Below, piece by piece: positions 1-45,117 of a DNA stretch of 52,515 bases (its first letter is position 1; the number at the start of each line of letters is the position of its first letter). Both the position numbers and the translations under genes were made by a program. Below the pieces are notes generated by a model. It worked only from the letters and a program-made list of their open reading frames with translations, ran no database searches and was not told where the DNA came from. This DNA is from a virus (lineage: Duplodnaviria; Heunggongvirae; Uroviricota; Caudoviricetes), in the IMG/VR virus record IMGVR_UViG_2724679237_000006, positions 1 to 52,515 of that record; one strand, written 5' to 3'.

Positions 1-59
1 TTTTGTATTTGTATTTTGTGCAATGGCGGTGGAGTGGCGATGGTGTGGCGATATGCAGA

Positions 60-260
60 AACAATAGTAGTGCACGTGCTGTTTAAACTCTAAGGATGAA
101 GCCGAATTCTCCTGCAGCTCCTCCGTATTTCGCATAGTGAACTAGGACCTCGGTTAAACAAAAATTTTTCTGGGATTTTTCCACTCGACTTCATTTTTCC
201 TCCTGCCATCCACCAAAAGGTACCTGCGCTAATCTGTCTTTTTTAATCTGACAACATCCA
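60..260 (-). pseudogene. Decayed hok/sok-like locus copy (toxin ORF largely deleted)
   Basis: Region 100-260 is a diverged paralogue of the mok-leader/sok region at 1150-1265 (shared cctcggttaaaca and ...aaaggcacc-gcgc-taatct-tc-ctttttt blocks). The hok-coding equivalent is reduced to a C-terminal remnant (..CEIRR..) with about 125 bp missing relative to the intact copy. Confidence 0.4.
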
Positions 261-476
261 GAGAAAAGGCAAATTCGTCAGATTTACTGTTTTTCTGCTG
301 CCTCGAATGCCGATGTCTGCAGCACTGATAAGAGCTCTATCTCTTTGATATAGATCTTTTTTTTGATGAATTGCACGGCATATTATCGTTATGACACCTT
401 CTTGTTAAAGGTGTTGTACTCCACATCTCGATTTTATGATGTGGGTTATGATTGGTTAGTAATAGAGTGTATCGGT

Positions 477-758
477 ATGCGATGTGGTTTATTAATGGCA
501 ATCTGTTTTTGTTTGGTATCTTTTAGTGGGTATGCAGCAACAGGAAAGTCTGATGCTCAGATCAAGAAAGAAATAATTAAAGAATCCATTGAATCGTATC
601 CAGGCAATTGTGCGTGTCCTTATAATCATGCAAGGAATGGTAGTAGATGTGGTAGACGCAGTGCATATAGCCGTACTGGAGGGTATGACGTGGTATGTTA
701 TGAGAGTGATGTTACGGATGAAATGATCCGGCAATGGAAGCAGGAGAATGCTGAGTAA
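477..758 (+). CDS. Small secreted Cys-rich protein of unknown function
   Basis: ORF 363-758; likely start at Met39 (MRCGLLMAICFCLVSFSGYAATGK) giving a signal-peptide-like N-terminus. Followed by a terminator at 835-868. No family recognised. Confidence 0.4.
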   Translation: MRCGLLMAICFCLVSFSGYAATGKSDAQIKKEIIKESIESYPGNCACPYNHARNGSRCGRRSAYSRTGGYDVVCYESDVTDEMIRQWKQENAE

Positions 759-834
759 TCACTTTTAACTGGTTTGTTTTGCGAGCATTATGTGTGTTGT
801 TAACGGTACCTTAGCTAAGTGAGAGCTCCAAAAG

Positions 835-868
835 AAAACCCGCAGTTTTTACGCTGCGGGTTTTCTTG
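835..868 (+). terminator. Rho-independent terminator
   Basis: Stem cccgcag (839-845) / ctgcggg (854-860) followed by ttttcttgttt. Confidence 0.6.
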
Positions 869-949
869 TTTGTGTCCATGGGATAGGGTGCCACTTCGGC
901 CAGCCTTAGCAACCGATTGACGGGGGATTGCTCCCCCGTCGCGGTTTCC

Positions 950-1090
950 TTACTGCTTACACTGTAAGAACGCCGCAAACTCCGCTCCCCAGAAGCTCAT
1001 CCGTATTTCACACAGCGAACCGTGCAGCATCCAGATGATGAGGATTACCGTCACGCAGAACGTGATGGCCATAAGCGATTTTTGCGACAT
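950..1090 (-). CDS. hok: Hok/Gef-family type I toxin (46 aa, below the ORF-track cutoff)
   Basis: Minus-strand translation MSQKSLMAITFCVTVILIIWMLHGSLCEIRMSFWGAEFAAFLQCKQ: hydrophobic TM segment followed by the SLCEIR and E-x-AAF motifs typical of Hok. Hairpin gacggggga-ttg-ctcccccgtc at 919-940 lies just downstream. Confidence 0.65.
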   Translation of the reverse strand: MSQKSLMAITFCVTVILIIWMLHGSLCEIRMSFWGAEFAAFLQCKQ

Positions 1091-1220
1091 AGCGCTTGCT
1101 CCTTTTTTGGGGAGGCGCTAACCTATCACTTGCTAAGGTTAGATGGTCAGGGCCTCGGTTAAACAGAGATGTTTTCCGGGGCCTTTCCACATCCGGCCTT
1201 CGGGTATTCCCTCCAGCCAT
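1008..1220 (-). CDS. mok: mok-like overlapping reading frame (70 codons) spanning the hok start
   Basis: 70-aa ORF in another frame overlapping the 5' part of hok, the same architecture as mok in plasmid R1 hok/sok. Protein sequence itself is not diagnostic. Confidence 0.4.
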   Translation of the reverse strand: MAGGNTRRPDVERPRKTSLFNRGPDHLTLASDRLAPPQKRSKRYVAKIAYGHHVLRDGNPHHLDAARFAV

Positions 1221-1280
1221 CAGCCGAAAGGCACCCGCGCGTAATCTATCGCTTTTTTGTTACTCCGGCAATTCAGCCTG

Positions 1281-1541
1281 TTAATTCTGAGGTAATGGCA
1301 AACTCATCTGGTTGTTTCCCCTGTGCGAAGCTGGTAGCTCATTCCACGGGATGCCCTCTGAAGAGTGAACGCCGGGGGCGTGTTTCGATGTGAATTTATG
1401 GAAAGCCTCCAGTGTTGAGAAGCATACGCCGCATTCCAGGTTGTTACACTGGTAATATTTTTTCCGTACGGTATCTGAATCATTTTCCGAACGACTGGTG
1501 CGGATTCGGGCAGATGCGCCACAAAGCGGACAACGGAACAT
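1281..1541 (-). CDS. ogr: Ogr-type zinc-finger late-gene transcription activator
   Basis: N-terminus MFRCPLCG...YYQCNNLECGVCF matches the Ogr/Delta C-x2-C...C-x4-C zinc finger. Located just downstream of D as in P2. Confidence 0.75.
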   Translation of the reverse strand: MFRCPLCGASARIRTSRSENDSDTVRKKYYQCNNLECGVCFSTLEAFHKFTSKHAPGVHSSEGIPWNELPASHRGNNQMSLPLPQN

Positions 1542-1583
1542 AGCGACCTCCCTTAACGTGGTGCTGCCGCTATTCTAAGTTGC

Positions 1584-2693
1584 TCACTCTGTTTCTGCTA
1601 TCCATTCCGGGATTTTTGCCTCAAGCTCAAGCTGCGTGGTAAAGCCGCTGTTATCAATGGAGTGCTCGGCTTTTGCAATAATCCAGTCCTGATTATCAAT
1701 CTCGCTTTTAAATCCTGTTACCGTGCCATGCATTTCGGGGTAGAGTTCTGCGCGTCCACGCGCCAGCGTGATGGAGAATGATGCGGCTCCGCGTTGTAGC
1801 TGCTGCCACTTTGCCGCCGCTGCGCGTCTTGCTGCCTGCTCGTTCTGATAAGTCTTGCGTAACACAAACACGTTGCCTTCCGCACCTTCCATATAGTCAC
1901 CTTCACGGCTGCTGCTTTTCTCCTTTTTGGGTTTTGGCGGTTTGCGGCGTTTCACGCTGACTTTTTTCTTTTTCCCGTAATTAAGATCAAGCCAGTAAGC
2001 GCGTACCCCCGTATACGCCTCGCGGTCAGCAATGCGAAACTGATGGCGATCGCCGCTGCTGCGTGTGATGGCAAACGATGGTAATGGTTTTCCCTGCGCG
2101 TTCACGCCACCACCTGGCATGATGAATAACAGATTACCGCTTTTTACCGTGGTGATTGCGCCCAGCATTTCCGCCATGCGTGTAAGGAAGGACATGTCGC
2201 TTTCTTCGGTCTGGTCAGCGTGGTCGATTTCAATATCCATCAGCATTTCGCTGATTTGCGGTTTCAGGCCGTATCGGTGAGCAATTGCAGACACCACGCG
2301 TTCAACGGTCACATCATGCCAGGATACTTCGCGCTTGACGTTAAATTCATCCCGAAAATCTGCGCTTCTGGCTGAAATGGTCAGTCTGTCGGGCGGTCCT
2401 TCATGAGCAATTTCATCAACAATGTAAGTGCCTTTTTCTGTCAGCGGTTCGCCTTTCCAGCCAATGAGAACCGTCAGGCGAGCGCCCCGTGGCGGCAACT
2501 GCAACTGACCATCAGCATCATCCAGCGTGATGGTTAGCTGGTCTGCTTCAAATCCCCGGTTGTCGGTCAGTGACAGGCTCATCAGGCGTTCTGTCACACC
2601 GGACAGCGTTTTCCCCTCCGCGAGAATATCAAAATCAGGCATCTTCACGGGGTCAGTACTCTGGTTGAACAGTTGCATGGTGGTGTCAATCAT
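1584..2693 (-). CDS. D: Tail protein D (late control gene D)
   Basis: ORF 1584-2825; probable start at internal ATG 2693 preceded by GGGAGGGAG RBS (MIDTTMQLFNQ...). LSLTDNRGFEADQLTITLDDADGQL region typical of gpD. Confidence 0.85.
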   Translation of the reverse strand: MIDTTMQLFNQSTDPVKMPDFDILAEGKTLSGVTERLMSLSLTDNRGFEADQLTITLDDADGQLQLPPRGARLTVLIGWKGEPLTEKGTYIVDEIAHEGPPDRLTISARSADFRDEFNVKREVSWHDVTVERVVSAIAHRYGLKPQISEMLMDIEIDHADQTEESDMSFLTRMAEMLGAITTVKSGNLLFIMPGGGVNAQGKPLPSFAITRSSGDRHQFRIADREAYTGVRAYWLDLNYGKKKKVSVKRRKPPKPKKEKSSSREGDYMEGAEGNVFVLRKTYQNEQAARRAAAAKWQQLQRGAASFSITLARGRAELYPEMHGTVTGFKSEIDNQDWIIAKAEHSIDNSGFTTQLELEAKIPEWIAETE

Positions 2694-8431: not shown

Positions 8432-8464
8432 AAAACCGCTAATGATCAGATTAGCGGTTTTTTG
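8432..8464. terminator. Bidirectional rho-independent terminator between convergent U and invertase genes
   Basis: Stem ccgctaat (8436-8443) / attagcgg (8450-8457), loop gatcag, flanked by A-run upstream and T-run downstream. Confidence 0.7.
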
Positions 8465-9069
8465 TTTCCTCTGGTCTTCTCAGTTGTCCCGGTTGATTCT
8501 CCCACGGGGTGGTAACGATAAATCGTCGATATACCAACGCCGTAAATTATGGCCAGTTGTTTTCTGTCATGGCCGTTTTTAATCAGCCTTGCTATTTGCT
8601 CATGTTGCTCTTTTGTCAGTTTCGGACGACGCCCACCAATGCGCCCCTGTGCGCGGGCTGCTGCCAGTCCTGCCCTGGTACGTTCAACTATCAGTTCGCG
8701 TTCCATTTCAGCTAAAGCCCCCATGACGTGAAAAAAGAAGCGCCCCATGGGTGTTGATGTGTCAATGCTGTCCGTCAGACTACGAAAATTGACACCTTTT
8801 TCCCGTAATTCCTCAATCAGTGTGATCAGGTGTTTCATGCTTCTGCCCAGCCTGTCCAGTTTCCAGACAACGAGCGTATCGCCTTCTGACAGTGTTCTGA
8901 GCAGTTTTTTCAATCCCGGTCTGGCTGACTTTGTTCCGCTGATTTTATCTTCAAAAATCAGTTCACATCCTGCGCTATTGAGCGCATTGCGTTGCAAATC
9001 CGTGTTCTGGTCATTTGTTGACACGCGTACATAGCCAATCAGCACATTGAATCTCCCGCTCAAAAGCAC
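8446..9069 (-). CDS. Serine recombinase, DNA invertase of the Hin/Gin/Cin/Pin family
   Basis: LIGYVRVSTNDQNTDLQRNAL...VVWKLDRLGRSMKHLI...MGALAEMERELI..RT.AGLAAAR motifs match Pin/Gin closely; active-site Ser in YVRVSTNDQ. True start may be the GTG at 9045. Confidence 0.9.
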   Translation of the reverse strand: MLLSGRFNVLIGYVRVSTNDQNTDLQRNALNSAGCELIFEDKISGTKSARPGLKKLLRTLSEGDTLVVWKLDRLGRSMKHLITLIEELREKGVNFRSLTDSIDTSTPMGRFFFHVMGALAEMERELIVERTRAGLAAARAQGRIGGRRPKLTKEQHEQIARLIKNGHDRKQLAIIYGVGISTIYRYHPVGESTGTTEKTRGNKKPLI

Positions 9070-10037
9070 AAATCATGCCATGTGGGCCAGAAACGACCAT
9101 TATCAAAACCGGTGGGCTTACTTTTGAATACGACTCAATCCTTGCCTGGATTCGGAATTCTGACTGGGCGAAGATTGGATTTAAAAATGATGCCGATGGT
9201 GACACTGATTCATTCATGTGGTTTGAAACGGGAGATAACGGCAATGAATATTTCAAATGGAGAAGCAAACAAAGCACAACAACAAAAGACCTGATGACGC
9301 TGAAATGGGATGCGCTAAATATTCTTGTTAATGCCATTGTAAATGGCGAAGTCATATCAAAATCAGCAAACGGCCTTCGTATTGCTTATGGTAATTACGG
9401 ATTCTTTATTCGTAATGATGGTTCAAACACATACTTCATGTTGACAAACTCCGGTGACAACATGGGGACTTATAACGGATTAAGGCCATTATGGATTAAT
9501 AACGCTACTGGCGCTGTTTCGATGGGGCGTGGCCTTAATGTTTCAGGGGAGACGCTTTCAGACCGTTTTGCTATTAACAGCAGTAATGGTATGTGGATTC
9601 AGATGCGCGATAACAACGCTATCTTTGGGAAAAATATAGTTAACACTGGTAGCGCTCAGGCGTTGCTTCGCCAGAATCACGCTGACCGCAAGTTCATGAT
9701 AGGTGGACTGGGGAACAAGCAATTTGGCATCTACATGATTAATAACTCAAGGACAGCCAATGGTACTGACGGTCAGGCGTATATGGACAATAACGGGAAC
9801 TGGCTTTGTGGTTCACAAATTATTCCCGGAAATTATGGAAATTTTGATTCCCGCTATGTGCGTGACGTTCGCATGGGAGCTAACCAGAGCGGAATAAAAT
9901 GGGGTGGCGAAGGTGGAACACTCCCTGCGGGGTATGTTCTTACAGGTGGTAACTTTGATGACGACTGGGAGTGGCCTGTCTATGCGCCTGTTCAGAAATA
10001 TATTAATGGTCAGTGGTACAATGTAGGACGTGCTTAA
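9051..10037 (+). CDS. Alternative (currently unfused) tail-fibre C-terminal variable domain
   Basis: Open frame starts right after a stop at 9048-9050, lacks a conserved N-terminus, and ends [11 protein letters not shown], paralleling the expressed H C-terminus INGTWYNAGSI. Confidence 0.7.
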
Positions 10038-10566
10038 TATGCAGCATTTAAAAAATATTAAAGCAGGAAATCCAAAAACTATCGAACAGTATCAACTTAC
10101 AAAAGAATTTGATGTTGTCTGGTTATGGTCGGAAGAAGGTAAGAACTGGTATGAGGAACAAAAAAACTTCCAGCCAGACACGTTAAAAGTGGCATATAAC
10201 CAGGAGGGTATTATTTGCTGCATAGAGAAAGACGCATCCCTGATTAATCCAGAGGGAATGAGTGTTATTGAGTTACCCAATATTACGGTAAACCGACGCG
10301 CTGATATTTCCGGCAACTGGATGATTAAGGATGGTGCTGTAATTAAAAGAGTCTATACAGAAGATGAATTACAACAGCAGGCTGAATCACAAAAAGCAGC
10401 TTTGCTTTCCGAAGCTGAATCAGTCATCCGGCTGCTGGAACGTGCCGTCAGGATGAATCTGGCAACAGATGAGGAACGTACACGGCTGGATGGCTGGGAA
10501 CGCTACAGCGTTCTGCTCAGCCGCGTGGATACGGCAAATCCTGAATGGCCACAAAAGCCTGAATAA
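10030..10566 (+). CDS. Alternative tail-fibre assembly protein
   Basis: 178 aa; N-terminus [21 protein letters not shown] almost identical to the oppositely oriented assembly protein at 10593-11126, C-terminus diverged. Confidence 0.8.
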
Positions 10567-25096: not shown

Positions 25097-25408
25097 TTAT
25101 TCGGGAAATAACGCCCGGATATTTCCGGCTATCTGACTGGTTATCTGTGCGGTGGGCGCTGGCTGTAACATGTGGCGTTCTGCCCTGGTTTGTGTCACTG
25201 ATAACGCCTCATCATCAGCCCATGCAGACAGTCGGTAAGCCTCTGCCGGATTCATTTTCAGAAGTGCCAGCCCGGCCAGAAAAGCCACGCGTTGGCCGCT
25301 TTTGCGGGCTTCTGGTGTAAGGCTGTCCAGCCAGTCGCATGCTTTGCCTTCGTTCTTGACGGCGGCTGGCTTCAGATAGAAACTTATTCTTCTGGTTAAT
25401 GTCGCCAT
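25097..25408 (-). CDS. parR: ParR-like centromere-binding adaptor
   Basis: Aligns with plasmid R1 ParR as recalled: ISFYLKP...CDWLDS...ER......A.LAGLAL....P and C-terminal I.GNIRALFP. Confidence 0.8.
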   Translation of the reverse strand: MATLTRRISFYLKPAAVKNEGKACDWLDSLTPEARKSGQRVAFLAGLALLKMNPAEAYRLSAWADDEALSVTQTRAERHMLQPAPTAQITSQIAGNIRALFPE

Positions 25409-25414
25409 GGAGGG

Positions 25415-26374
25415 TTACTCCTTATCCATAGCGTACAGACCGTTAACCAGAGCAAACTGTGGCACCCCGTCTGTGATGAAATTCGCATTGACTCCATAGA
25501 CTTCATGGACTGCGGGTGCCACAATCTCCGCTCCTCCACCGACAACCAGCACCCGCCCGTAACCCGAAAAGCCCGCGAGTGCGCGGATCACGCGTTGTTT
25601 TAGTGTCTCCTCCTTTTCACGAATAACTGCCATCAGGCTGTTGTAATGCGCGTCATTGTGGATGTGCCGGCGCAGCCAGGCTTCATCGTGACGATGTTCA
25701 ATAACGGTACTGGCGACGTGGTGACTGGTACGCATGCCGTTGGCGGCCATCACCGACAACACGGCATCGGTCATCAGGGAAACGCCCACATGTGGATCGC
25801 AAAATACCTGGCTGATGCCTGCCAGTTGCCCCTGAACCTTTGCCACATCCAGCGTTGTTCCGCCTAAATCCACAATCAGCAGAGATTCAAACGGACTCAT
25901 GTCAGCCAGTGCCTTAAAGCCAGCCGGAATGGATTCAGGCATAACCCGCACGTTGCGGATAGTGAATGCTTCACCGTTCTGGTACTCCACAGGGCGCAGG
26001 ACATTCGCTTTTTTGCGGTTGATGTTGGCCATGTCCGGCTGTGCGTTTGTATCGAAATACTCGCTCAGTGGCAGAGTGACAACCACGTCCACTTCCTGTG
26101 GTGTGATACCTGATTTGACCAGCGCGTGATGAATGGCAATGACATTCACATCGCTGTACTGGTATTGCGTGTCGGTCGTCTGGACAAAGCGATCGCTGAC
26201 CGGATCAAAACCATAGCGCACGCCATCAAGCATGTAGTTCGCGGGCTGCGTGCCACCGAACGGCGCAGACCATTCCGACTTGAAGCTGTTCGGGCTGATG
26301 GCGTTGCGGCGTTCGCCGTTCTCAGTCCATGCCAGCTTGATGTTGGTGGAGCCGTCGTCGATGCAAATTTTCAT
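25415..26374 (-). CDS. parM: ParM actin-like segregation ATPase
   Basis: MKICIDDGSTNIKLAW...ISPNSF...YSDVNV.A.HHAL..SG......VD.V.T.PL.E......IDLGGTTLD...GGGAE match R1 ParM/StbA along the full length. Confidence 0.9.
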   Translation of the reverse strand: MKICIDDGSTNIKLAWTENGERRNAISPNSFKSEWSAPFGGTQPANYMLDGVRYGFDPVSDRFVQTTDTQYQYSDVNVIAIHHALVKSGITPQEVDVVVTLPLSEYFDTNAQPDMANINRKKANVLRPVEYQNGEAFTIRNVRVMPESIPAGFKALADMSPFESLLIVDLGGTTLDVAKVQGQLAGISQVFCDPHVGVSLMTDAVLSVMAANGMRTSHHVASTVIEHRHDEAWLRRHIHNDAHYNSLMAVIREKEETLKQRVIRALAGFSGYGRVLVVGGGAEIVAPAVHEVYGVNANFITDGVPQFALVNGLYAMDKE

Positions 26375-26402
26375 GTCGATTTTCCTTATGTTGATTAATT
26401 AA

Positions 26403-26516
26403 TCGTTTACGGGATTCTGAAATCCCGCTTTTGCCTGTTTTGTGCGCGTTTCATATATCGCGGCGTGTTTTTCGCTCATTTACGGGATTTGTGAATCCCG
26501 TTTCTGTCTGTTTTTT
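26403..26516. repeat. parC-like centromere: two ~40-bp direct repeats each with a 16-bp palindrome, upstream of parM
   Basis: tttacgggattctgaaatcccg...ctgtttt (26404-26442) and tttacgggatttgtgaatcccg...ctgtttt (26476-26516); inner palindromes gggattctgaaatccc and gggatttgtgaatccc. Confidence 0.55.
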
Positions 26517-29271
26517 GTTTTCGCTGGTCAGGCCACCGCAGCAGGTCTGCTTTGCGGCGGGCGCGTTCAGTGGTTTCACTGATTCTCTGTGCGTGCTCTG
26601 CGTCACGGATGGTGCGCAGCATGTCAGAAAGTACGGTAACGGGTGTTTTCATGGTGTTCTGGTCCTGCTGAATTGTGGATGCCAGGCGTGCGGCGGCTTC
26701 TGGGTCTGATGCCCCGAGCTGTTTCAGATAGCTGGAAACCGGGTTATGGCGGATTTCCGTGCTGTTTACGCCGTGATTACGGCTCAGGCGCTGCCAGAGT
26801 TGTGTGATTCGGCTGTCCGGTCGGGTATCCGGTTTACGTACAATTTCAAATCCCTGCGGTGCAATGATGCTGCCGTCAACGTACAGACTGCCGCCCCGTA
26901 ACAGGTGCTGCATCTGTTGTTCACCGATATGCAGGCCGAGAGATTCGGCAGACTCCCGCCATTCTTTAGCGAGTAACTCGTGGTTATCAGGCAAAGGCCG
27001 CGGCTGTTTGCGGCTCTGTGTCCAGTTCTGCATTTCATCACTGTTGTTTTTTGCCTGTTTGTCACGCAGCGAACGCATCAGCGCCCGGCTTTCGTGCCGT
27101 TTCAGTGAGCGCATCCATTCATCCACATCAACGCCGTCAGGAAGCTGCGGCCACGGTGCTGGCCGTTCTTCCGGCTGTTCTGTCCCGTTGTTGTCCGTTT
27201 CCTGTACACGGGGACAGTTATTGCCACGAGTCCAAGGGGCGGCAGGGCCGCCCTGAAGGTCAAAACCATTTTCGCGGGCGCTGTCTTCCGCTTCCGGTTT
27301 ACGTCTTACCAGCTTCCAGTTATCCGGGTGCGTGCACACGCGGGAAGACTCCCCGATTTGTGGCGACCAGATCCCGTAAATCTGTACGCTTTGCTCGCCG
27401 TAATCGTTCAGCTCTTCTGCGAGGTCGTAGGCGGTGCGAATCAGGTAATCCTTGCGTGGAACAAGTACGCCACCCTGTTTCTCAATGTAGGTGGCAAAAC
27501 ACCCGGCATCAGCGGCAGCGAGTACCGCATCCATTGCGTCATTTTCCAGACGTTGTGGACCTTCCGGGTTGCGGGCCATCTGACTGGCAAGGCGGCGGAG
27601 TTCACGCCATACTTGACGGGAGGGGATACCAAAGAACTGGAACTGGCGGACGCGGTGAAGGCGCGCCCAGCCGATGGCGCGTTCCACGCTCTCGGCCATT
27701 GATTTTCCGGTTTCGTGATCAACGCGTGGCTTGCCTGTTTTCGGGTCAATGCCATCCACGGCGCGGCTGTCCAGGTTCTTTCCGATGTAGGTGGCGATGT
27801 AGCTGGTCGGCGTACCTTTCGAACCGTCGACGTACTCTGCCTTAAAGCGCGGAGTTATGTCATTGCCCAGCTCGTGGCGGTCTTCGCGAATGGCAATATC
27901 ACGGGTGATGTCCACGATGCTGTCGATTTCTTCAGGATGTGCAAAGACCATCATGTGCCAGTGCACGGTGCCGTCATGGTGTGGCTCCACCGTGCGGATG
28001 CCATACCAGCGCAGGCCGTCGCGATTCAGTTTTTTGCGGACCGCCTTAAAAAAAGTGTTAACCAGGTAATCACTGGAATCGCGCATGGTGGCGCCGTTCC
28101 ATTTGGGATTCGGATGACCGTTCTCTGTTGTAGCGTGGTATTTTGACGGGCAGGTGACAGTCAGAAACACCGCTCTGTCGCCACGGGCTTCGGCCAGAAG
28201 TTCCAGTCCCTTCATGGTGGCCATCATTTCTGCCTTACGGTGGACCGGGTTACTTACTCCCGCGTAATACACTGTCTCGAGATCAATCGTGAACCCGTCT
28301 TCATTTTCCAGCATGAAACTTTTCAGGAAATCGCGTGTTTTCTCGCGCTGTGCGCGAAATTCACTTAATGCGTCCTGACTCAGATAGGGTGATGTTTTTC
28401 TGGAAACCAGACAGGCAGCGCGGAGTTGTTCCTCTCTCCATTCGCAACGTAAAAGCCACAGTTTGCGTTTCCACCAGTCCGCACAGGTCAGGCGGAGGAT
28501 TGCACCCGGCAGCAGTTCCGTGTCCGGTTCGTTCTTCCGGTCTTTGTCTGTTGTCAGTGCGTCATAATGCGGCGGCACTGTGTGCAGATGTAACGCCATG
28601 CGGGCCAGCATCTGATACGCCTTCAGCGTTATATCCATGGTCAGCTCGCCGTCGGTCGCGCCACAGCCATCGCAGAGTTTTTCGAAGGTGCTGCTGAACA
28701 TTGCCGCCGTCATGACGGCCAGCGTCTGTATCTGGTGCTTGTTGAGCTGTGGCAGGTACAGCAAATCGTCCAGACGTTCACGTCCGGCAAGGGAGCGATA
28801 ACCCGGAGTCAGCCAGCGACGGTCGGTGCGGGCCAGGCGTTCGAATATTTTGCGCAGGGTTCCGCTCGCATAGCGTTCCGCCTGCTGGTTCTTTTTGCCT
28901 TTCTGGTGGCCAGATTCCTGTTTTTTGCGCAGGAAAGAGAGATGGCGGATAAGCGGATCACGCAGATAGGACGGCAGCAGACGCAGCGAGGCCATGGCTT
29001 CATCCACCGCACCGCGTGCCTGCTTTCTGGCTTCTCTTGCCAGTGTGATGACTTTGTCCTGTTTTTCCTGTGCGTCCAGGCTTTTATTAATCAGATTGCC
29101 CAGTGGTGCAGCGGAGAACGCCGCATCAGCCATTTCCTGGCGGCGCTCGTTCTCTGCCCGGTAGGCATCCAGCCAGGAAGAAAGAAGGGAGGGGCGGACA
29201 GGCTCCCCCGTTCCCTCGCGACCGACTGCATGGCGTGGTTGTTGCCAGTCTCTGATGTACTCCGTTGCCAC
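26476..29271 (-). CDS. A: Replication initiation endonuclease, gpA-like (HUH rolling-circle initiator)
   Basis: 931 aa; HHDGTVHWHMMVF (HUH motif) and SYIATYIGKNLD (catalytic Tyr region) as in P2 gpA. Confidence 0.8.
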   Translation of the reverse strand: MATEYIRDWQQPRHAVGREGTGEPVRPSLLSSWLDAYRAENERRQEMADAAFSAAPLGNLINKSLDAQEKQDKVITLAREARKQARGAVDEAMASLRLLPSYLRDPLIRHLSFLRKKQESGHQKGKKNQQAERYASGTLRKIFERLARTDRRWLTPGYRSLAGRERLDDLLYLPQLNKHQIQTLAVMTAAMFSSTFEKLCDGCGATDGELTMDITLKAYQMLARMALHLHTVPPHYDALTTDKDRKNEPDTELLPGAILRLTCADWWKRKLWLLRCEWREEQLRAACLVSRKTSPYLSQDALSEFRAQREKTRDFLKSFMLENEDGFTIDLETVYYAGVSNPVHRKAEMMATMKGLELLAEARGDRAVFLTVTCPSKYHATTENGHPNPKWNGATMRDSSDYLVNTFFKAVRKKLNRDGLRWYGIRTVEPHHDGTVHWHMMVFAHPEEIDSIVDITRDIAIREDRHELGNDITPRFKAEYVDGSKGTPTSYIATYIGKNLDSRAVDGIDPKTGKPRVDHETGKSMAESVERAIGWARLHRVRQFQFFGIPSRQVWRELRRLASQMARNPEGPQRLENDAMDAVLAAADAGCFATYIEKQGGVLVPRKDYLIRTAYDLAEELNDYGEQSVQIYGIWSPQIGESSRVCTHPDNWKLVRRKPEAEDSARENGFDLQGGPAAPWTRGNNCPRVQETDNNGTEQPEERPAPWPQLPDGVDVDEWMRSLKRHESRALMRSLRDKQAKNNSDEMQNWTQSRKQPRPLPDNHELLAKEWRESAESLGLHIGEQQMQHLLRGGSLYVDGSIIAPQGFEIVRKPDTRPDSRITQLWQRLSRNHGVNSTEIRHNPVSSYLKQLGASDPEAAARLASTIQQDQNTMKTPVTVLSDMLRTIRDAEHAQRISETTERARRKADLLRWPDQRKQKTDRNGIHKSRK

Positions 29272-33295: not shown

Positions 33296-34297
33296 ATGTC
33301 GGTTCGTAAGATTCCATCAGGTAAATGGCTTTGCGAATGTTATCCTTACGGGGCATCGGGAAAACGTATTCGTAAACAGTTTGCGACAAAAAGTGAGGCG
33401 CTCTCTTATGAGCGCCGTTTAATGAATAGTAGAGTTGGAGACGAGTTTCAAGATGGTTCTGGTCCTCGTCTTTCTGAGTTGGTTGCTCGTTGGTTTGAGA
33501 TGTACGGTAAAACCTTGTCCTCTGGTGCAGAGCGCAAAGTCAAACTTGAGTCTATTTGTTCCAGGCTGGGAGATCCATTTGCTTCTCAGTTTGACAAAAA
33601 TATGTTTGCTACTTATCGGGAAAGGAGGTTATCAGGAGAATGGAATCCCAAGGGGAAGAAAAAACTTAGTGAAGCAACCGTTAATCGCGAGCAGTCATAT
33701 CTACATGCTGTTTTTGCCGAACTGAAGCGCCTTGGGGAGTGGTCTGGTGAAAACCCCCTGACTGGCATTCGCAAGTTTCGTGAGGAAGAAAAGGAATTGG
33801 CGTTTCTGTATGTAGATGAGATTGAACGCCTTCTGATTGCGTGTGATGAGTCACGGAATAAAGATTTGGGGGTTGTTGTCCGTATTGGGCTTGCGACTGG
33901 TGCTCGGTGGAGTGAAGCTGAAGGATTAAAGCAATCTCAAGTGCTGCCCGGTCGAATCACATTTGTTAAAACTAAAGGAAAGAAGAACCGCACTGTACCG
34001 ATTTCACCTCAATTGCAGGCTATGCTTCCTAAAAAACGAGGAGCGTTATTTTCACCATGTTATGAGGCTTTTGACGCTGCAATTAAGAGAGCGAAGATCG
34101 AGCTTCCTGATGGGCAATTAACTCATGTGCTACGTCACACGTTTGCCAGTCATTTTATGATGCGGGGAGGAAATATTCTTGTGTTGCAAAAAATACTGGG
34201 GCATAGCGATATAAAAATGACTATGCGTTATGCGCATTTTGCTCCAGGTCATTTAGAGGCTGCAGTTGAATTGAACCCTTTTGACAATAGAGGGTAA
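33296..34297 (+). CDS. int: Tyrosine integrase, P2 Int-like
   Basis: 333 aa; GKRIRK.F..KSEA, GARWSEA, RITFVKTK..K.RTVPIS, LRHTFASHFMM.GG.I..LQ.ILGH....MTMRYAHFAP match P2 Int as recalled, including catalytic R..H..R..Y. Confidence 0.9.
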   Translation: MSVRKIPSGKWLCECYPYGASGKRIRKQFATKSEALSYERRLMNSRVGDEFQDGSGPRLSELVARWFEMYGKTLSSGAERKVKLESICSRLGDPFASQFDKNMFATYRERRLSGEWNPKGKKKLSEATVNREQSYLHAVFAELKRLGEWSGENPLTGIRKFREEEKELAFLYVDEIERLLIACDESRNKDLGVVVRIGLATGARWSEAEGLKQSQVLPGRITFVKTKGKKNRTVPISPQLQAMLPKKRGALFSPCYEAFDAAIKRAKIELPDGQLTHVLRHTFASHFMMRGGNILVLQKILGHSDIKMTMRYAHFAPGHLEAAVELNPFDNRG

Positions 34298-34403: not shown

Positions 34404-34458
34404 TTTAAAATCCCTCGGCGTTCGCGCTGTGCGGGTTCAAGTCCCGCTCCGGGTACCA
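34404..34458 (+). other. 55-nt 3' fragment of a tRNA-Leu gene (anticodon loop to CCA), an attachment-site core
   Basis: tttaaaatccctcggcgttcgcgctgtgcgggttcaagtcccgctccgggtacca matches the 3' portion of an enterobacterial tRNA-Leu (UAA, leuZ-type) as recalled; upstream sequence cannot form the acceptor and D arms. Confidence 0.75.
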
Positions 34459-34502
34459 TGGGAAAGATAAGAATAAAATCAAAGCAATAAGCAGTGTCGT
34501 GA

Positions 34503-34525
34503 AACCACCTTCGGGTGGTTTTTTT
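34503..34525 (+). terminator. Rho-independent terminator after the tRNA fragment
   Basis: Stem aaccacc / ggtggtt, loop ttcg, followed by ttttttt. Confidence 0.7.
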
Positions 34526-34588
34526 GTATCTTCTTTCTCATTTCCGAAGATGCGTCCGAAGATGATTTTTCTCTGGACGCATCATCAT

Positions 34589-35605
34589 TCATTTTCTCTG
34601 GCCACCAACTACGGGCACTACTTTAACTTTCCGGTCATATGCTGCTGTCTGTCGCGGGTTCTTATGCCCGGAAATTGCTTGCTTCTCTTCCAGGCTGCCT
34701 TCCAGATCAGAGATACCTTTTGCTTTCAGATCATGAAATGTGAAGTCTATTTGCAGATGAGGATATTTTTCCTGTGCTGCCGCTTTGACATCACGCCAAC
34801 GAGAGTTAAAACCATCACGGGTATACTTGCCACCGGTAGTTTGATGAATCACAAACAGGCTACTGATTCCCGTTTTTAATGGCAGAGAACGAGCCAGAGC
34901 TATCGCTTTCTGCAGACGAGGCGACCAGGCTTTGATTTGCTTAACGCCGGTTTTTCCCTGACGAATGTAGATCCCGGAATCGAACAGCTGGTCTTTCTGC
35001 AATGAAAGTACATCACTCTGTCTGGCCACGCATAAGTAGGCAATCTCCATTGCTACGCGAACAACATCAGGAGACACTTCATAAACGGCCTGATATTCTT
35101 CATCCGTAATATAACGTTCGCGAGCTTTCTCTTTAAACTGTTTAACTCCCTGACAAGGATTCCTCTGAACATAACCTCGTTCATAACCCCAACGGAATAC
35201 CCGGGACATAAAGCTTTTTTCCCTGTTTGCCTGAGTTCGGCTTGATAAACCGCGTTGATCCATATAGCGCCGAATATGTTCAGGTTTGATTTTATCCGGG
35301 TCGATCTTCCCGAAGACAGGCAGAACTTTTCCGGAATATTTTGTGTAGTCTTTCCGGGTTTCGACTGCCAAATCCATAAAATCAGGGGAGGTCATGAATT
35401 GTTCCGTGAGCGCCTGAAAAGTATTTCTTTCTTTTTCGTCACCGACCGCTTTTTCATATGCCAGCCATACGGCTGATCGTGGTGCATCCAATGCGCACAG
35501 GCGTATCGCTTTGTTATCTTTATTCCTGAATTCGTAGGCCGCTTTGCCCTGGTAAACACGAGGCGGCATCCAGTTATCTGCTGGGTTCTTTCTCTTTCCG
35601 GCCAT
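34589..35605 (-). CDS. int: Tyrosine integrase (lambda Int family) of a second element
   Basis: ORF 34589-35635; N-terminal arm-binding-like MAGKRKNP..NWMPPRVY and C-terminal catalytic region (HDLKAKGISD...GH....TAAYDR). Confidence 0.85.
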   Translation of the reverse strand: MAGKRKNPADNWMPPRVYQGKAAYEFRNKDNKAIRLCALDAPRSAVWLAYEKAVGDEKERNTFQALTEQFMTSPDFMDLAVETRKDYTKYSGKVLPVFGKIDPDKIKPEHIRRYMDQRGLSSRTQANREKSFMSRVFRWGYERGYVQRNPCQGVKQFKEKARERYITDEEYQAVYEVSPDVVRVAMEIAYLCVARQSDVLSLQKDQLFDSGIYIRQGKTGVKQIKAWSPRLQKAIALARSLPLKTGISSLFVIHQTTGGKYTRDGFNSRWRDVKAAAQEKYPHLQIDFTFHDLKAKGISDLEGSLEEKQAISGHKNPRQTAAYDRKVKVVPVVGGQRK

Positions 35606-35837
35606 TAAATATTGCTCCAAAATCAGGTTCATCATCTTTTCGCGTCGTCACCTCCTGTAAATTGCGAAATTTTATTGGGTTCATGAAATGGCCCCAGGTT
35701 GTTTTTGGGTGTCCGTCAGCCCTTTCCATGAAGAAAATTCCAGCCCGGCGAAGAGCCTCACATTGCTTTGATTTAAGTGGGCTTCCCGTCAGCTCGACCA
35801 TTTCTTCTCTGGTGATTATGTCGTGATCGCTTTTCAT
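35574..35837 (-). CDS. Excisionase-like / small DNA-binding protein
   Basis: 87-aa ORF immediately upstream of and overlapping int; ITREEMVELTGSPLKSKQCEALRRAG is HTH-like. Confidence 0.4.
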   Translation of the reverse strand: MKSDHDIITREEMVELTGSPLKSKQCEALRRAGIFFMERADGHPKTTWGHFMNPIKFRNLQEVTTRKDDEPDFGAIFNGRKEKEPSR

Positions 35838-36027
35838 GGTCTTTCCTCATTATGTAGCTTATTGCGTCATCTGCCTTCTGGCAGGCACGGGCAATATCAG
35901 ACTCGGTCAAAGTCTGTTTCCTGACGCTGGCCGACAGTCGACCAATTTTGATATCAAATGCGGAGAGCAGAGTTGCTCCCGGTTGCCATCGCAGCATTGT
36001 GATCCTCCGGTGTCTGGTGAATCGCAA
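35773..36027 (-). CDS. Hypothetical protein
   Basis: 84-aa ORF. Confidence 0.3.
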   Translation of the reverse strand: MRFTRHRRITMLRWQPGATLLSAFDIKIGRLSASVRKQTLTESDIARACQKADDAISYIMRKDHEKRSRHNHQRRNGRADGKPT

Positions 36028-36046
36028 TGCTAGCGATGGTGAGTTT

Positions 36047-36229
36047 TTATTTCTGATTAGGCGTAATCAGTTCTTGTGGGGTGAATGCCGATTTCTCCCG
36101 AGTGACCTTAATGTTTTCTGGCAGGTGTAGCCCAAGTTCGCAGCGGCTCCGTGCTTCAATAATGCCATTGGTACCATCGGCAAGTACCAGGTGAACCGCG
36201 TCACCACGCTTTAATGTGAGTTTAAGCAT
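36047..36229 (-). CDS. Hypothetical protein
   Basis: 60-aa ORF. Confidence 0.3.
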   Translation of the reverse strand: MLKLTLKRGDAVHLVLADGTNGIIEARSRCELGLHLPENIKVTREKSAFTPQELITPNQK

Positions 36230-36798
36230 TAGCGTATCCTCAGTGACCGTTCGCCGCGTTCCATATGTGCGCCTGGTACCGGGTTTAATAACTCGGCTGG
36301 TGGTGTTTCTCCACGCGCCAGTATTTCGGCGGCAACCGCCTCCGCAGATTCAATCACTTCTTTAATGGCTCGCTTGTTTGGTGTAATAACCGTTTCTACA
36401 TCAACAAGTGACACACCCTCATACTCGTCCGGGATCTTATCTTTGTTATCAATAATTACCCGGATAGCCCCCTGTGCATCAGTAAATGTGTTTTTTGCGG
36501 TTTTCAGTTTATCCAGGCCAGCAGCTTGCAGGCAGGCGAGCATATGCTTTCGAATTGCTTTTTCCTTGCCTTCAAAGGACGTCTTACGGGTAGCCAGGCG
36601 AGACATTTCTTCAGCGCAGGTATTGGCATTGCCCTGTAAATTGCGGCAGATGACCATCATGACGTCCAGTTTGTCTCCCAGTTCTCCTTCCATACCTTCA
36701 AGCGTGTCGGCGATCATCTCTGGCGTCAGTTCGTCGGAGGTTTCCAGCAGGTCAATCAGGCTGACATATTCTTTTGCAATAGCGATAGCGGTGCTCAT
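36229..36798 (-). CDS. Gp157-like recombination-associated protein
   Basis: 189 aa acidic protein directly downstream of the SSAP gene; pattern resembles the Sipho_Gp157 family, from memory. Confidence 0.45.
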   Translation of the reverse strand: MSTAIAIAKEYVSLIDLLETSDELTPEMIADTLEGMEGELGDKLDVMMVICRNLQGNANTCAEEMSRLATRKTSFEGKEKAIRKHMLACLQAAGLDKLKTAKNTFTDAQGAIRVIIDNKDKIPDEYEGVSLVDVETVITPNKRAIKEVIESAEAVAAEILARGETPPAELLNPVPGAHMERGERSLRIR

Positions 36799-38507
36799 GC
36801 GGTTTGCTCCTGTGCAGCGGTGAGGGCGGCGAGGCGTTCAGTTTTGATGTCGGTGATACGGCGCAGGCGCGATCCCAGATACGATGAATATTCTTTATCG
36901 CCTTTGGCTTCTGCTGCTTTTCGGTGTACATCAACTTCGCGGGCGATGAGGCCAAATACCTTGTTTACTTCGTTGGTGGTTACCGCGGCGGCCAGCGTAT
37001 TGGCAACGTTGATCAGCTTCTCATCCAGTTCCTTACGAAGACGGGTAGCATCTTCCGCATTCTCGCTGGCATTCTTGATATCAAACTCAGCTTTATTCCT
37101 CTGGCGGTATTCCGGATTGTCGTACAGGCCCATGAAAATATCGGCGCTGAATCCGAGAGGGGATAGCGCTTTCTTAACAGCATCCGTCCAGGATTTCTTC
37201 GGCGCTTCGCCGTCGCTTGTTGGTCCATGTTTAGTATCGTAGATGTACGGAGTGCAACCGTAAGCCGCAGACTCGCCGCGCACCCCATTCAATATGTACC
37301 AGACTCTCACTTTCATGGTGTGGTGTATTTCACATAGGTACCCGCCAACACCGTCTTGAATCAGATCCCATTCTATTTTTTCACCAACCTGTTTTTTGCG
37401 AACTATCGGTGCGCCTTTATCAAAACGCTCTTCCAGCACCTCTACACCCCAGCCAATACCAAACGGCCCAAATTCGCGAGTCGCTTTCATCGCTATATAA
37501 GTGCCGTTGATGGATGTGCCGCCGCCATTCTGAGAGAAAGCACTGGTGAAGCGCTCATCGGTTTTGAATACGTTCTTCCACAATGCCAGGTTATCCGTGT
37601 CATCTGAGTCCTTTAACTCCGTTTCGATAGCTGAGATTGCATTCTGCCGCTTGTGCTCTTCGGTATGGATCCGCTCAACCAGCGCGTCAACGTTCTGCAC
37701 CAGATCCTTTACCTGCTCGCTAAGTTGTTCTTGTGGAGGAGTCTCTTCTGCCGGGGTAATAGCTGCAGGTTCCCTCTGTGATACGGCGTTATTTTCAGGT
37801 ACGTAATACACATGGCGAGGCGTGACAAACTGCTCACGCAACTGCTGCAAACTACGTTCTCCAGCATTCGCTGCTTCGCTTTTTTCGCCCTGATTTGAGG
37901 GTGTTTCTGACATCATCCCATCAATTGAGAATCGTCCGCCGCCGTGGTTGGTGACTTTTACATCATCCTTTGGTGCTGATTCCTTTGGCTTCTCTTCAAC
38001 AGCATTTGCATCACGCTGCCCGTTAGCTTGCAGCCAGTTGTCGATGTGACTGCGCAGGGATTGTGGGAAGTGGTACGTGTCTTTTGCGGGGGCGCTCTGA
38101 ATAACACCGAATACTGATGCGCGGTCATAGGCAAGGATCTGATCCGTTGTGCGCAAGGCCATTGACCAGCGTTTAAAATCTTCCCTGTCCTGACTGATTA
38201 TTTCGTCTGCCGCTTTCAGGATGCTGGGGGTGATTTTTTCCGGGACAACAGGTAACAGGGCGCAGGCAATTTCACGATCCAGTGTGGCGTGAGTCTGTTG
38301 GTAAGGACGTGCGGATGCTGTTTCTGGTTTTACCTCCGGCAGCATTTCATCGCGTTTACCGGGATTCTCTACCCATTTTTTTATAAATTTGGAGATAGTC
38401 CAACTGGTCGGGTTTTGTTCCTGGGTATCGCAACTTGCCAAAATTGCATGTACCAGATTATTCAATCCAGCAATATGCATGTACTCGATGGGCTTACACG
38501 CCACCAT
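36795..38507 (-). CDS. Rad52/Sak-like single-strand annealing protein domain within a long ORF
   Basis: 570-aa ORF; the C-terminal half (GTYIAMKATREFGPFGIGWGVEV...YGCTPY) resembles Sak/Rad52-family SSAPs; the N-terminal half is unassigned. Confidence 0.45.
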   Translation of the reverse strand: MVACKPIEYMHIAGLNNLVHAILASCDTQEQNPTSWTISKFIKKWVENPGKRDEMLPEVKPETASARPYQQTHATLDREIACALLPVVPEKITPSILKAADEIISQDREDFKRWSMALRTTDQILAYDRASVFGVIQSAPAKDTYHFPQSLRSHIDNWLQANGQRDANAVEEKPKESAPKDDVKVTNHGGGRFSIDGMMSETPSNQGEKSEAANAGERSLQQLREQFVTPRHVYYVPENNAVSQREPAAITPAEETPPQEQLSEQVKDLVQNVDALVERIHTEEHKRQNAISAIETELKDSDDTDNLALWKNVFKTDERFTSAFSQNGGGTSINGTYIAMKATREFGPFGIGWGVEVLEERFDKGAPIVRKKQVGEKIEWDLIQDGVGGYLCEIHHTMKVRVWYILNGVRGESAAYGCTPYIYDTKHGPTSDGEAPKKSWTDAVKKALSPLGFSADIFMGLYDNPEYRQRNKAEFDIKNASENAEDATRLRKELDEKLINVANTLAAAVTTNEVNKVFGLIAREVDVHRKAAEAKGDKEYSSYLGSRLRRITDIKTERLAALTAAQEQTA

Positions 38508-39007: not shown

Positions 39008-39037
39008 TGGTCTTTCCTCATTACAGGTCAGTGGTCT

Positions 39038-41206: not shown

Positions 41207-41219
41207 AATATAAGTTAAC

Positions 41220-41248: not shown

Positions 41249-41274
41249 GCTAACAAAAGTTACGTGGAGGGATT

Positions 41275-45116: not shown

Positions 45117-45117
45117 T

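Follow-up and report, generated by a model that had tools for sequence, protein, structure and literature searches.

A probable hok/sok-type toxin-antitoxin locus of a HokA-like subfamily without a conserved mok frame, beside a relic second copy, in a P88-like prophage

A small Hok-like reading frame near one end of a viral DNA raises the question of whether it belongs to a complete type I toxin-antitoxin locus and, if so, how the expression of such a locus would be controlled. The window that we analysed is the whole stretch of 52,515 nucleotides, and a sequence-only reading of it had placed a hok/sok-type locus beside ogr, a gene that does adjoin (1281-1541, Pfam Ogr_Delta). We consider it very probable that positions 830-1271 make up a complete type I toxin-antitoxin locus of the hok/sok type, belonging to a HokA-like 46-residue subfamily and carried as cargo of a P88-like prophage, with the relic of another such locus (copy B) beside it. 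The assignment to the hok/sok type is largely right; family models and public annotation back it, as do RNA folding and covariation. A gene for a Hok-family membrane toxin with an antisense-RNA control region is an ordinary, known kind of system; the unusual point of the 46-residue subfamily, judging by the sequences compared, is that it is without a conserved mok leader reading frame.

The proposed 46-codon Hok-like frame is present on the minus strand, and its comparison with Hok family models gave a match to Pfam HOK_GEF (PF01848) of 30.3 bits, above the gathering score of 22, with residues 7-44 aligned to positions 5-42 of the 42-position profile. The protein also matches PHROG 251 (82.5 bits), a family labelled 'MokW-like host killing'. 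Among NCBIfam models the best is the HokA equivalog (NF007290), reached with 35.1 bits, under its cut-off of 89. The closest named toxin is K-12 HokA, at 43% identity, and SLCE, AAFL and CK are kept in the alignment of the two. By these sequence comparisons the protein is HokA-like, not HokA. Residues 6-23 are hydrophobic, as read off the sequence, and the Hok/Gef hallmarks are present (an N-terminal hydrophobic helix, the Cys in LCE(I/L/V) and a C-terminal E-x-A-A-F). In E. coli, hundreds of genomes already annotate the gene as Hok/Gef, as do several phage records: PGAP names the protein 'Hok/Gef family protein', and an identical 46-residue protein stands under Hok/Gef in RefSeq, on about 1000 contigs. 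Values of dN/dS for hok, taken against two diverged relatives, are 0.22-0.30, a sequence-level sign of purifying selection on the peptide across lineages that are all without mok. In one plasmid lineage, the hok changes are mostly non-synonymous.

The features of the locus are collected in Table 1. The hexamers of the hok promoter are retained, 17-18 nt apart, in four unrelated upstream contexts whose flanks cannot be aligned, and relatives carry the variants TTGCCC/TAGATT, TTGAAA/TAGAAT and TTGCGC/TACATT. From the -10 hexamer to the RNA 5' end (1236) there are 6 nt. A strict scan for the sigma-70 consensus flagged neither this promoter (8/12 matches) nor the predicted Sok promoter. Homology between loci starts at 1236 and ends just past 886, and the primary transcript probably extends to the terminator at ~830. 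This terminator (832-867) has a 15-bp stem with a T/U run on either side, and it is also found in phage P88, where homology runs from 830.

Table 1. Coordinates of the features in and near the hok locus, in window positions
Feature	Positions	Strand	Details
hok promoter	1243-1271	-	-35 TTGCCG (1271-1266), 17-nt spacer, -10 TAGATT (1248-1243)
hok mRNA body	886-1236	-	~351 nt to the end of the fbi box
tac 5' end of hok mRNA	1236-1222	-	
70-codon 'mok-like' open frame	1008-1220	-	judged fortuitous
ucb-like box	1188-1178	-	
Sok-target hairpin	1183-1151	-	
Long-range helix	1140-1125 with 917-904	-	
Anti-SD/SD hairpin	1120-1095	-	SD AAGGAG, 1104-1099
hok toxin gene	950-1090	-	46 aa, MSQKSLMAITFCVTVILIIWMLHGSLCEIRMSFWGAEFAAFLQCKQ
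3' stem-loop of hok mRNA	919-941	-	CGACGGGGGAGCAAUCCCCCGUC; flagged by hairpin scan
fbi (fold-back inhibition) box	886-901	-	GGCCGAAGUGGCACCC, complementary to mRNA 5' end
Bidirectional intrinsic terminator	832-867	both	common to hok (minus) and the 93-aa gene (plus)
Predicted Sok promoter	1096-1124	+	-35 TTGCTC (1096-1101), 17-nt spacer, -10 TAACCT (1119-1124)
Predicted Sok-like antisense RNA	1131-1193	+	~58-63 nt; ends 1131/1136 to 1188/1193
Copy B, decayed hok locus	79-244	-	5' leader (244-144) fused to frame-broken hok C-terminal half (142-79)

The hok mRNA is predicted to fold with a minimum free energy of -163.4 kcal/mol (z = -7.7), its 5' end paired with its 3' end. In both the minimum free energy fold and the consensus fold of eight loci, the fbi segment 901-886 pairs with 1236-1222. 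Across the consensus fold, 94.3% of cells are paired, compared with ~40% in slid controls, and 18 pairs show compensatory changes, a number reached in none of 500 shuffles. Its two 3' elements are both paired in 100% of the cells of these loci: the tac/fbi helix (13 pairs) carries only G-C to G-U changes, and four of the nine pairs of the 3' stem-loop (941-919) carry compensatory changes. The modelled fold is a closed one, in which the 5' end lies on the fbi box, the region of the Sok-target tail on a second 3' segment, and the hok SD in a local hairpin. The Sok-target hairpin contains the GAGG motif, as in R1. When the RNA is shortened from its 3' end, the prediction refolds so that nucleotides 1-11 pair with 49-59, which brings the 5' end onto the ucb-like box. 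The hok SD is paired in the predicted full-length fold and in the predicted truncated fold.

A hairpin downstream of hok had also been proposed, and a G+C-rich one does lie at 918-941, just past the stop codon. It is an internal 3' stem-loop of the mRNA, with the fbi box (901-886) and then the bidirectional terminator following it. By analogy with the last stem-loop of R1 Tr-hok, the model for this role (PMC9841398), the 941-919 stem-loop is likely to be the protective end of the 3'-processed, active mRNA. The leader is also matched by Rfam RF01794 at 1102-1236 on the minus strand (40.9 bits, E = 4e-7, under the gathering score of 59). All members of the subfamily score 39-44, and at its gathering score the Rfam sok model misses the whole 46-residue Hok subfamily. 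A K-12 control established that RF01794 is hok-sense, with sokC inside the model on the opposite strand.

The position of the antisense RNA was taken from a curated relative. A blastn search against plasmids did not reach the R1-type hok/sok loci, to which the DNA similarity is too low, and K-12 hokC/sokC was therefore used as the reference. The two loci are colinear and the GGCCTCGG box stands 63-64 nt from the hok AUG in both, so the curated sokC coordinates can be transferred to this locus. K-12 sokC (59 nt) covers RF01794 positions ~44-102, which correspond to window positions 1192-1136. The predicted RNA begins with a single-stranded 5' tail, which is followed by a G+C-rich hairpin of 10 bp that contains an inner stem, and it ends in UUUCC. 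Its hairpin folds at -24.8 kcal/mol (z = -3.8), and none of 200 shuffles is as good. The sequence-only reading had set a Sok-like RNA at 1150-1265 on the plus strand, which is too far to the right, since homology to sokC ends the RNA near 1192; positions 1194-1236 are complementary to the 5' end of hok, and the hok promoter occupies 1237-1271. A transcript with this span would end at the T-run 1253-1258, which lies in the spacer of the hok promoter and is preceded by a stem of only 3 bp, and its fold has a z of only -2.25, compared with -3.8 for 1131-1190.

By analogy with sokC, we infer a Sok promoter at 1096-1124, placed by its position relative to the curated K-12 start and matching the consensus weakly. 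Its -10 hexamer lies inside the AGGTTAGCGCC block, which is invariant in 11/11 sequences. The conservation of this block is no proof of a promoter, because the same block is a conserved RNA stem.

We compared ten related loci, which include those of P88, P884B11, the O157 remnant, TUM9812, a Stx phage, IncI1 plasmids and pSTEC639_1, for a mok reading frame. The 70-codon frame that had been called mok-like does overlap hok; as a mok it fails, being a chance frame that is not conserved in relatives, and its AUG, 16 nt from the RNA 5' end, is without an SD. In frame -1, the R1 mok frame, there are in-frame stops and no ATG, GTG or TTG upstream of the hok AUG in eight of the ten loci; the frame is closed in this way in all of those named above. 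In frame 0, that of K-12 mokC, every one of the ten relatives has an in-frame stop, nine of them TAG and the other TAA, and upstream of hok neither a start nor a near-cognate start was found in the related loci compared. With the present locus counted in, all 11 sequences have a stop a few codons before the AUG in the frame in phase with hok (ten TAG, one TAA). The conserved AUG at +17 opens frames of 6 to 37 codons in the other loci. After this comparison, a mok in the R1 frame, at the in-frame K-12 position or from the +17 AUG was dropped in each case, and a mok of the R1 paradigm, with its own SD and start and overlapping the hok start, was not found in this locus.

Because no mok leader frame is conserved, control probably acts through the stability or folding of the hok mRNA directly. 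We tentatively propose, as a reading that has a real but somewhat less than even chance of being right, that the 46-residue HokA-like subfamily of P2-like phages, Stx phages and IncI1 plasmids is naturally mok-independent, having given up the leader peptide while keeping the whole tac/fbi/ucb switch and the GAGG motif. Antisense control would in that case act purely by mRNA decay or refolding, without translational coupling. Were the absence of mok confirmed experimentally, the textbook mok-coupling step would be dispensable in natural Hok systems.

The R1 hok/mok/sok (parB) system resembles the present locus in its small Hok/Gef membrane toxin, its leader of ~150 nt and the pairing of its tac 5' end with fbi. 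Further likenesses are a full-length mRNA that would be inert, a predicted tac/ucb-like pairing once the 3' end is shortened, a 3' stem-loop that is likely to be protective, and GAGG in the target hairpin (PMC9841398), together with a short cis-antisense RNA, predicted here, whose putative promoter overlaps the hok translation start region. Unlike R1, the present locus lacks a start codon at 1145-1143, where the R1 mok AUG would stand, and a mok frame is conserved in no phase; its toxin has 46 residues rather than 52, and it is prophage-borne, whereas R1 is plasmid-borne. In K-12, mokC and mokA extend hok in frame at its N-terminus, whereas an in-frame stop closes that frame here, and K-12 hokA and hokC are chromosomal and IS-disrupted, in contrast with this phage-borne and intact locus.

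[quoted passage not shown] The PHROG label and matches to Stx phages had prompted us to consider that the present locus is hokW-sokW itself. This was dropped, as the cloning primers (PMC8621323) encode a different, canonical 51-residue Hok (MKQQKAM...DYESEK, compared with the 46-residue MSQKSL...FLQCKQ here). Stx2 phages carry, apart from hokW, an 83%-identical copy of the present locus. Phages P88, P884B11 and Chuche and the prophage remnants at leuZ have DNA 91-95% identical to that of the window, from ~830/879 rightwards through hok, ogr and gene D, and their 46-residue protein is annotated Hok/Gef or MokW-like. The DNA left of the hok locus is different in the phage records.

These likenesses suggest a course of events modelled on R1 hok/sok and K-12 hokC/sokC. 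The full-length hok mRNA would be inert, and slow 3' trimming back to the 941-919 stem-loop would strip away both 3' pairing partners. The freed 5' end could then refold onto the ucb-like box (1188-1178) and expose the antisense target, with which the short, unstable plus-strand RNA (~1131/1136-1193) would pair, leading to decay by RNase III. When the supply of antisense RNA stops, Hok would be made and the inner membrane depolarised. Such a system is most likely an addiction module that penalises loss of the prophage segment; a role in lysis at induction, by analogy with hokW-sokW, is less likely, as is an abortive defence against other phages.

An intact-looking locus may nevertheless be silent, like the inactivated chromosomal loci of K-12, if its SD-sequestered cistron is left untranslated without mok and the locus has no toxin-antitoxin activity. 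In R1, mok translation is needed up to the hok SD, and Hok is no longer translated once the mok start is lost (PMC9841398), so a locus without mok could be translationally silent; most relatives have no mok start in any frame, both predicted folds keep the hok SD paired, and K-12 hokA and hokC have adjacent IS insertions. We nonetheless hold this to be unlikely, given that the peptide is under purifying selection in the very lineages that are without mok. Moreover, a dead locus would not be expected to preserve its promoter, fbi box, 3' stem-loop and long-range helices with compensatory changes, as this one does, and the truly dead copy B displays what decay looks like here. The further idea, that the Hok-like frame and its hairpins arose by chance in non-coding DNA at a prophage end, could appeal to the shortness of the frame (46 codons) and the weak promoter matches. 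We give it a negligible probability and regard it as already refuted by the family models (Pfam and PHROG 251, both above curated thresholds), the sharp homology borders of a ~350-nt module that recurs in P2-like phages, Stx phages and IncI1 plasmids, and the covariation together with the fold z of -7.7.

A diverged second copy near hok had likewise been proposed, and two alignments with the hok locus (copy A) beat those with shuffled sequences. Positions 144-244 of copy B match 1149-1258 of copy A at 83 of 101 positions (score 80.5, shuffles 20.0 +/- 2.7), and 79-142 match 953-1020 at 49 of 59 (score 43, shuffles 17.7 +/- 2.5). The leader is kept and the toxin frame damaged, as had been claimed, although about half of the frame (codons 1-23) is gone and not most of it. 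What copy B is without is 128 nt equivalent to 1021-1148 of copy A, which hold those codons and the hok SD as well as the promoter and 5' tail predicted for Sok. It also has no 3' UTR, with its hairpin and fbi box, and the spacer of its hok-type promoter, 12 nt, is not the correct one. Its antisense region, said to be retained along with the leader, is not really so, because the gap takes both the Sok promoter and the 5' tail; the remaining hairpin has decayed (-7.6 kcal/mol, z = 0.18). Copy B is a dead, non-functional relic of a second hok locus, having lost both the start and SD of the toxin and the promoter and 5' tail of Sok. A single deletion probably took the toxin start and the antitoxin promoter together.

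Of 5426 complete E. coli genomes, 615 carry copy B over at least 80% of its length. Among the matches listed, representatives that span it align in full length without the 128 nt, with no feature annotated there, and no intact copy B was found among them; the weaker ones are other hok leaders, at ~75% identity. An unannotated hok pseudogene beside tRNA-Leu is now recognised in many E. coli genomes. Copy B might alternatively serve as an orphan antitoxin or RNA decoy, its Sok-like or leader RNA buffering hok or neutralising incoming related phages or plasmids. The copies compared share the same internal gap in many genomes, at 88-99% identity, and ~100 nt of leader are kept, ~82% identical to A-type leaders; copy B also directly follows the terminator of the tRNA operon, so plus-strand read-through is conceivable. 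We nevertheless judge this role very improbable. The predicted Sok promoter and 5' recognition tail sit in the deleted stretch, the hairpin folds no better than shuffles, the hok-type promoter has its short spacer, and an Rfam search of copy B gave no match at E <= 1. Copy B also diverges at least as fast as its flanks (88.6% compared with 93.2% identity in strain TUM9812). As a source of an orphan Sok it was dropped on the loss of promoter and tail and the decay of the hairpin.

The probable hok/sok-type locus lies inside a P88-like (Xuanwuvirus, P2-like) E. coli prophage, between ogr and the tRNA-proximal att site. A 126-bp att repeat marks the two ends of the prophage at tRNA-Leu (leuZ) and was found only with upstream tRNA-Leu sequence taken from a near-identical genome; a search in the window alone found nothing. 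That par genes occur in the same element proved correct: between its att sites the prophage also carries ParM (25415-26374) and a ParR-like gene (25097-25408). Neither copy B nor the 93-aa gene turned up in the phage collection searched. The main value of these results is a correct annotation, as hok/sok loci of prophages have been documented before, in the case of hokW-sokW experimentally; a by-product is a set of coordinates for unannotated mRNA elements and a predicted antisense RNA.

The whole 1-1600 segment is found at leuZ in O157:H7, 55989 and many other strains. In O157:H7, whose remnant is 95% identical, only copy B, the 93-aa gene, hok and ogr are left next to yecA, and the other prophage DNA is gone. 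The content of this remnant fits an addiction role, and hok could also have been kept there by chance. Retention of hok in prophage remnants such as this one fits the view that, as a prophage decays, the toxin-antitoxin genes it carries bias which segments are kept.

Alignment to Hok family models, one of the checks proposed in the sequence-only reading, bears out the Hok-like gene of 46 codons that had been noticed there. The protein scores 30.3 bits against Pfam HOK_GEF (cut-off 22) and 82.5 bits against PHROG 251 ('MokW-like host killing'). Among NCBIfam models the HokA equivalog fits best (35 bits, far under the cut-off of 89); identity is 43% with K-12 HokA and 27% with HokC. The identical sequence occurs on at least 997 public contigs as 'Hok/Gef family protein' or 'HokA', and PGAP annotation of it is present in matching genomes. 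The locus is described here as a known, already annotated kind in a known context, correctly recognised by the earlier reading, whose account of mok, of the Sok coordinates and of the second copy needs correction. Identity with HokW of prophage Sp5 was ruled out, as the published hokW primers encode another Hok, the canonical 51-residue MKQQKAM...DYESEK (PMC8621323); Stx2 phages carry a separate copy of the present locus, 83% identical and distinct from hokW.

Features of the hok region and its prophage (window numbering)
Feature	Position	Strand	Remarks
93-aa gene	476-757	+	between the two hok copies
Bidirectional terminator	832-867		beyond the fbi box
hok ORF	950-1090	-	46 residues, MSQKSLMAITFCVTVILIIWMLHGSLCEIRMSFWGAEFAAFLQCKQ
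mok-like frame	1008-1220	-	70 codons; AUG 16 nt from RNA 5' end, without SD
Predicted Sok promoter	-35 TTGCTC 1096-1101; -10 TAACCT 1119-1124	+	17-nt spacer; start ~1131
hok SD (AAGGAG)	1104-1099	-	with bases before AUG in predicted local hairpin; anti-SD 1120-1111
Putative hok promoter	-35 TTGCCG 1271-1266; -10 TAGATT 1248-1243	-	comparative
ogr	1281-1541		Pfam Ogr_Delta
Gene D	1584-2825		matches P88 and P884B11
ParR/StbB-like gene	25097-25408	-	same prophage as hok
ParM gene	25415-26374	-	274 + 219 bits; same prophage as hok

The window locus was aligned with ten homologous loci, from phages P88 and P884B11, the O157:H7 and TUM9812 chromosomes, an Stx phage, two IncI1 plasmids, an IncC plasmid, replicon pSTEC639_1 and a decayed E. 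albertii plasmid copy. Homology among the 11 sequences has sharp borders, beginning at GGGTGCC (window 1236) and stopping just past GGCACCC (886). Although the contexts upstream of 1236 are unrelated, a -35/-10 pair spaced by 17-18 nt is present in every one, 6 nt before 1236. Because this pair persists in unrelated contexts, there is good comparative evidence for the hok promoter and an RNA 5' end at 1236.

RNA 1236-885 yields a predicted fold of -163.4 kcal/mol (z = -7.7; as good in none of 100 shuffles) in which nucleotides 1-15 pair with a 3' box at 901-886. In this model the pairing is the closure between tac (the 5' end) and fbi (the 3' fold-back inhibition box), elements that define hok mRNAs (PMC9841398). 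Across eight loci, 94.3% of cells in the consensus structure are paired, versus 37-43% with partners slid, and 18 pairs show compensatory changes (shuffles 7.4 +/- 1.9; 18 reached in 0 of 500). Covariation falls mostly in two helices: the 3' stem-loop at 941-919 (four pairs), which is the downstream hairpin noted earlier, and a long-range helix, 1140-1125 with 917-904 (six pairs), that would hide the part of the leader recognised by the predicted antisense 5' tail. Shortening the RNA to the 941-919 stem-loop switches the predicted fold, placing the 5' end on a box at 1188-1178 that resembles ucb (the alternative 5'-end partner) and opening the target hairpin, which parallels the switch from full-length to truncated R1 mRNA.

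Rfam RF01794 ('sok') matches 1102-1236(-) with 40.9 bits (E = 4e-7), not reaching the gathering threshold of 59. At the K-12 hokC locus, used as a control, the match (118 bits) lies on the hok-sense strand with curated sokC inside it on the opposite strand; RF01794 therefore models the hok leader, and a minus-strand match is as expected. All members of the 46-residue subfamily score 39-44 bits, and their Sok RNA is therefore left unannotated by standard pipelines. Carrying over the sokC coordinates, via the model and direct alignment, places a Sok-like RNA at ~1136-1192(+); in the direct alignment the two loci share a GGCCTCGG box at 63-64 nt from the hok AUG. RNA 1131-1190 is predicted to fold (-24.8 kcal/mol, z = -3.8; as good in 0 of 200 shuffles) into a free 5' tail of 13-17 nt and a strong hairpin followed by UUUCC, which is the Sok layout. 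We infer such an RNA and its promoter, whose hexamers are weak matches that a consensus promoter scan did not flag; the invariant AGGTTAGCGCC block containing the -10 doubles as an RNA stem. The span first suggested for Sok, 1150-1265, overlaps only the hairpin, and its remainder crosses the hok promoter and the stretch complementary to the hok 5' end.

The 70-codon mok-like frame is present as described, but to judge from the alignment it is not a conserved part of the subfamily. In eight of the ten relatives, stops between +91 and +135 close this phase, and ATG, GTG and TTG are all absent from it before the hok AUG. K-12 mokC extends hokC in the same frame; here the upstream hok-phase frame is shut by an in-frame stop in all 11 sequences (TAG in ten, TAA in pSTEC639_1), and none has a start codon, even near-cognate, upstream of the hok AUG. 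The R1 mok AUG lies 7 nt after GAGG (PMC9841398). The codons at its position in these loci are CAU, AUA, CGU, CCG, CAC or ACU, and an AUG at +17 opens six-codon frames in two aligned lineages. Either hok would be translated without need for a leader peptide, or the loci would be silent, which we rank as less likely. A dN/dS of 0.22-0.30 for the hok codons against two diverged lineages argues that the peptide is probably made. That the whole subfamily seems to work without mok is a mildly interesting residue. The copies on IncI1 plasmids pVP444 and pW49-2-a, which stop one codon sooner than the window copy, differ from it by 7.5 non-synonymous and 0.5 synonymous changes, in contrast with the purifying pattern of the other lineages.

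The second hok copy, at 79-244(-), is a pseudogene. As the earlier reading held, it is a diverged copy, aligning to the intact leader (144-244 with 1149-1258; 83/101 identical, ~22 SD above shuffles) and to the C-terminal half of hok (79-142 with 953-1020; 49/59, ~10 SD) and nowhere else, but the predicted antisense promoter and 5' tail are missing from it. The 128 nt absent (1021-1148 of the intact locus) comprise hok codons 1-23 and the SD, together with the promoter and 5' tail predicted for Sok. Frame-breaking indels interrupt the remaining codons, the 3' stem-loop and fbi box are both missing, the promoter spacer is 12 nt, and the hairpin folds no more stably than shuffles do (z = 0.18). 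A single deletion taking toxin start and antitoxin promoter together would be a lesion that the cell survives. This copy is ~82% identical to leaders of the intact type, and no other lineage resembles it more. Of 5426 complete E. coli genomes, 615 contain at least 80% of its length (88-99% identity), and no intact version was found among them; the listed representatives spanning it align at full length and lack the same 128 nt, with no annotated feature there among the matches listed.

Hundreds of E. coli chromosomes match window 1-1600 (94-99% identity); in them the segment adjoins the end of the glyW-cysT-leuZ tRNA operon, which lies downstream of pgsA, and base 1 falls just past the operon terminator. 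A 126-bp repeat (tRNA-Leu 3' half, spacer/terminator and window 1-8) has an exact second copy at 34404-34529, just past an integrase gene (33296-34297), and window 8-34404 is therefore a single att-bounded prophage. The whole hok region (60-1290) lies inside it, between the tRNA-proximal att and ogr. The tail genes, gene D and ogr are ~93% identical to phages P88 and P884B11 (Peduoviridae, Xuanwuvirus). In phage records the DNA left of hok is unrelated to that of the window, so the att-proximal end looks like a variable cargo region, to which the second copy and the 93-aa gene probably came by recombination with another phage. The 93-aa protein begins with a stretch like a signal peptide (MRCGLLMAICFCLVSFSGYA|ATG) and has five cysteines past the predicted cleavage site. 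Its PHROG matches are 27544 (unknown function; 195 bits) and, weakly, a moron family labelled 'membrane associated protein'; Pfam and NCBIfam searches gave no family. Many E. coli, O157:H7 included, keep the gene together with the hok module, and the gene was not found in the phage records searched. Directly inside the att repeat, a short repetitive stretch at 9-60 (GGCGGTGGAGTGGCGATGGTGTGGCGAT, with GTGGCGAT present twice) fills the place expected for the 3' UTR of the second copy and could be an integrase arm-type binding site.

In O157:H7 strain PV15-279, only the second copy, the 93-aa gene, intact hok and ogr persist between leuZ and yecA, the remaining prophage being gone, and strain 510016 still keeps hok in an IS-riddled prophage. 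This retention is in keeping with addiction, where selection would act against deletions removing hok, and could also be chance. By analogy, two further roles come into question as less likely ones: the locus might help with lysis at induction, as shown for hokW-sokW (PMC8621323), or serve in abortive defence against other phages, as reported for R1 hok/sok (cited in PMC8621323).

The co-occurrence of both R1-type stability functions, hok/sok and par, in one element holds, as ParM and a ParR/StbB-like protein are encoded in the same prophage. A putative actin-type partition system (25097-26517) is carried by an integrated P2-like, Xuanwuvirus-like prophage. Upstream of parM, two 42-nt direct repeats (26403-26444 and 26476-26517), each with the palindrome ACGGGATT...AATCCCG, are a plausible parC-like centromere candidate. 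Elsewhere in the prophage, a serine recombinase gene (Resolvase + HTH_7; 8446-9069(-)) adjoins a tail-fibre C-terminal gene (9075-10037) and a tail-fibre assembly gene (10030-10566), a layout that resembles a Cin/Gin-type invertible host-range segment.

Because a second element with its own integrase (34589-35635(-)) begins straight after the repeat at 34404-34529, leuZ carries two elements in tandem; no far end of the second one was found within the window. This element (34589-52515) encodes a DnaB-type helicase (43276-44667) and proteins named RepO, SMEK-domain and ORF6N-domain in matching genomes. Rfam matches above gathering are isrK (46329-46403(+)), the a1/b1 targets of C4 (46316-46368(+)) and C4 antisense RNA (46428-46513(+)), and 46316-46513(+) is a P1/P7-type C4 immunity RNA module.
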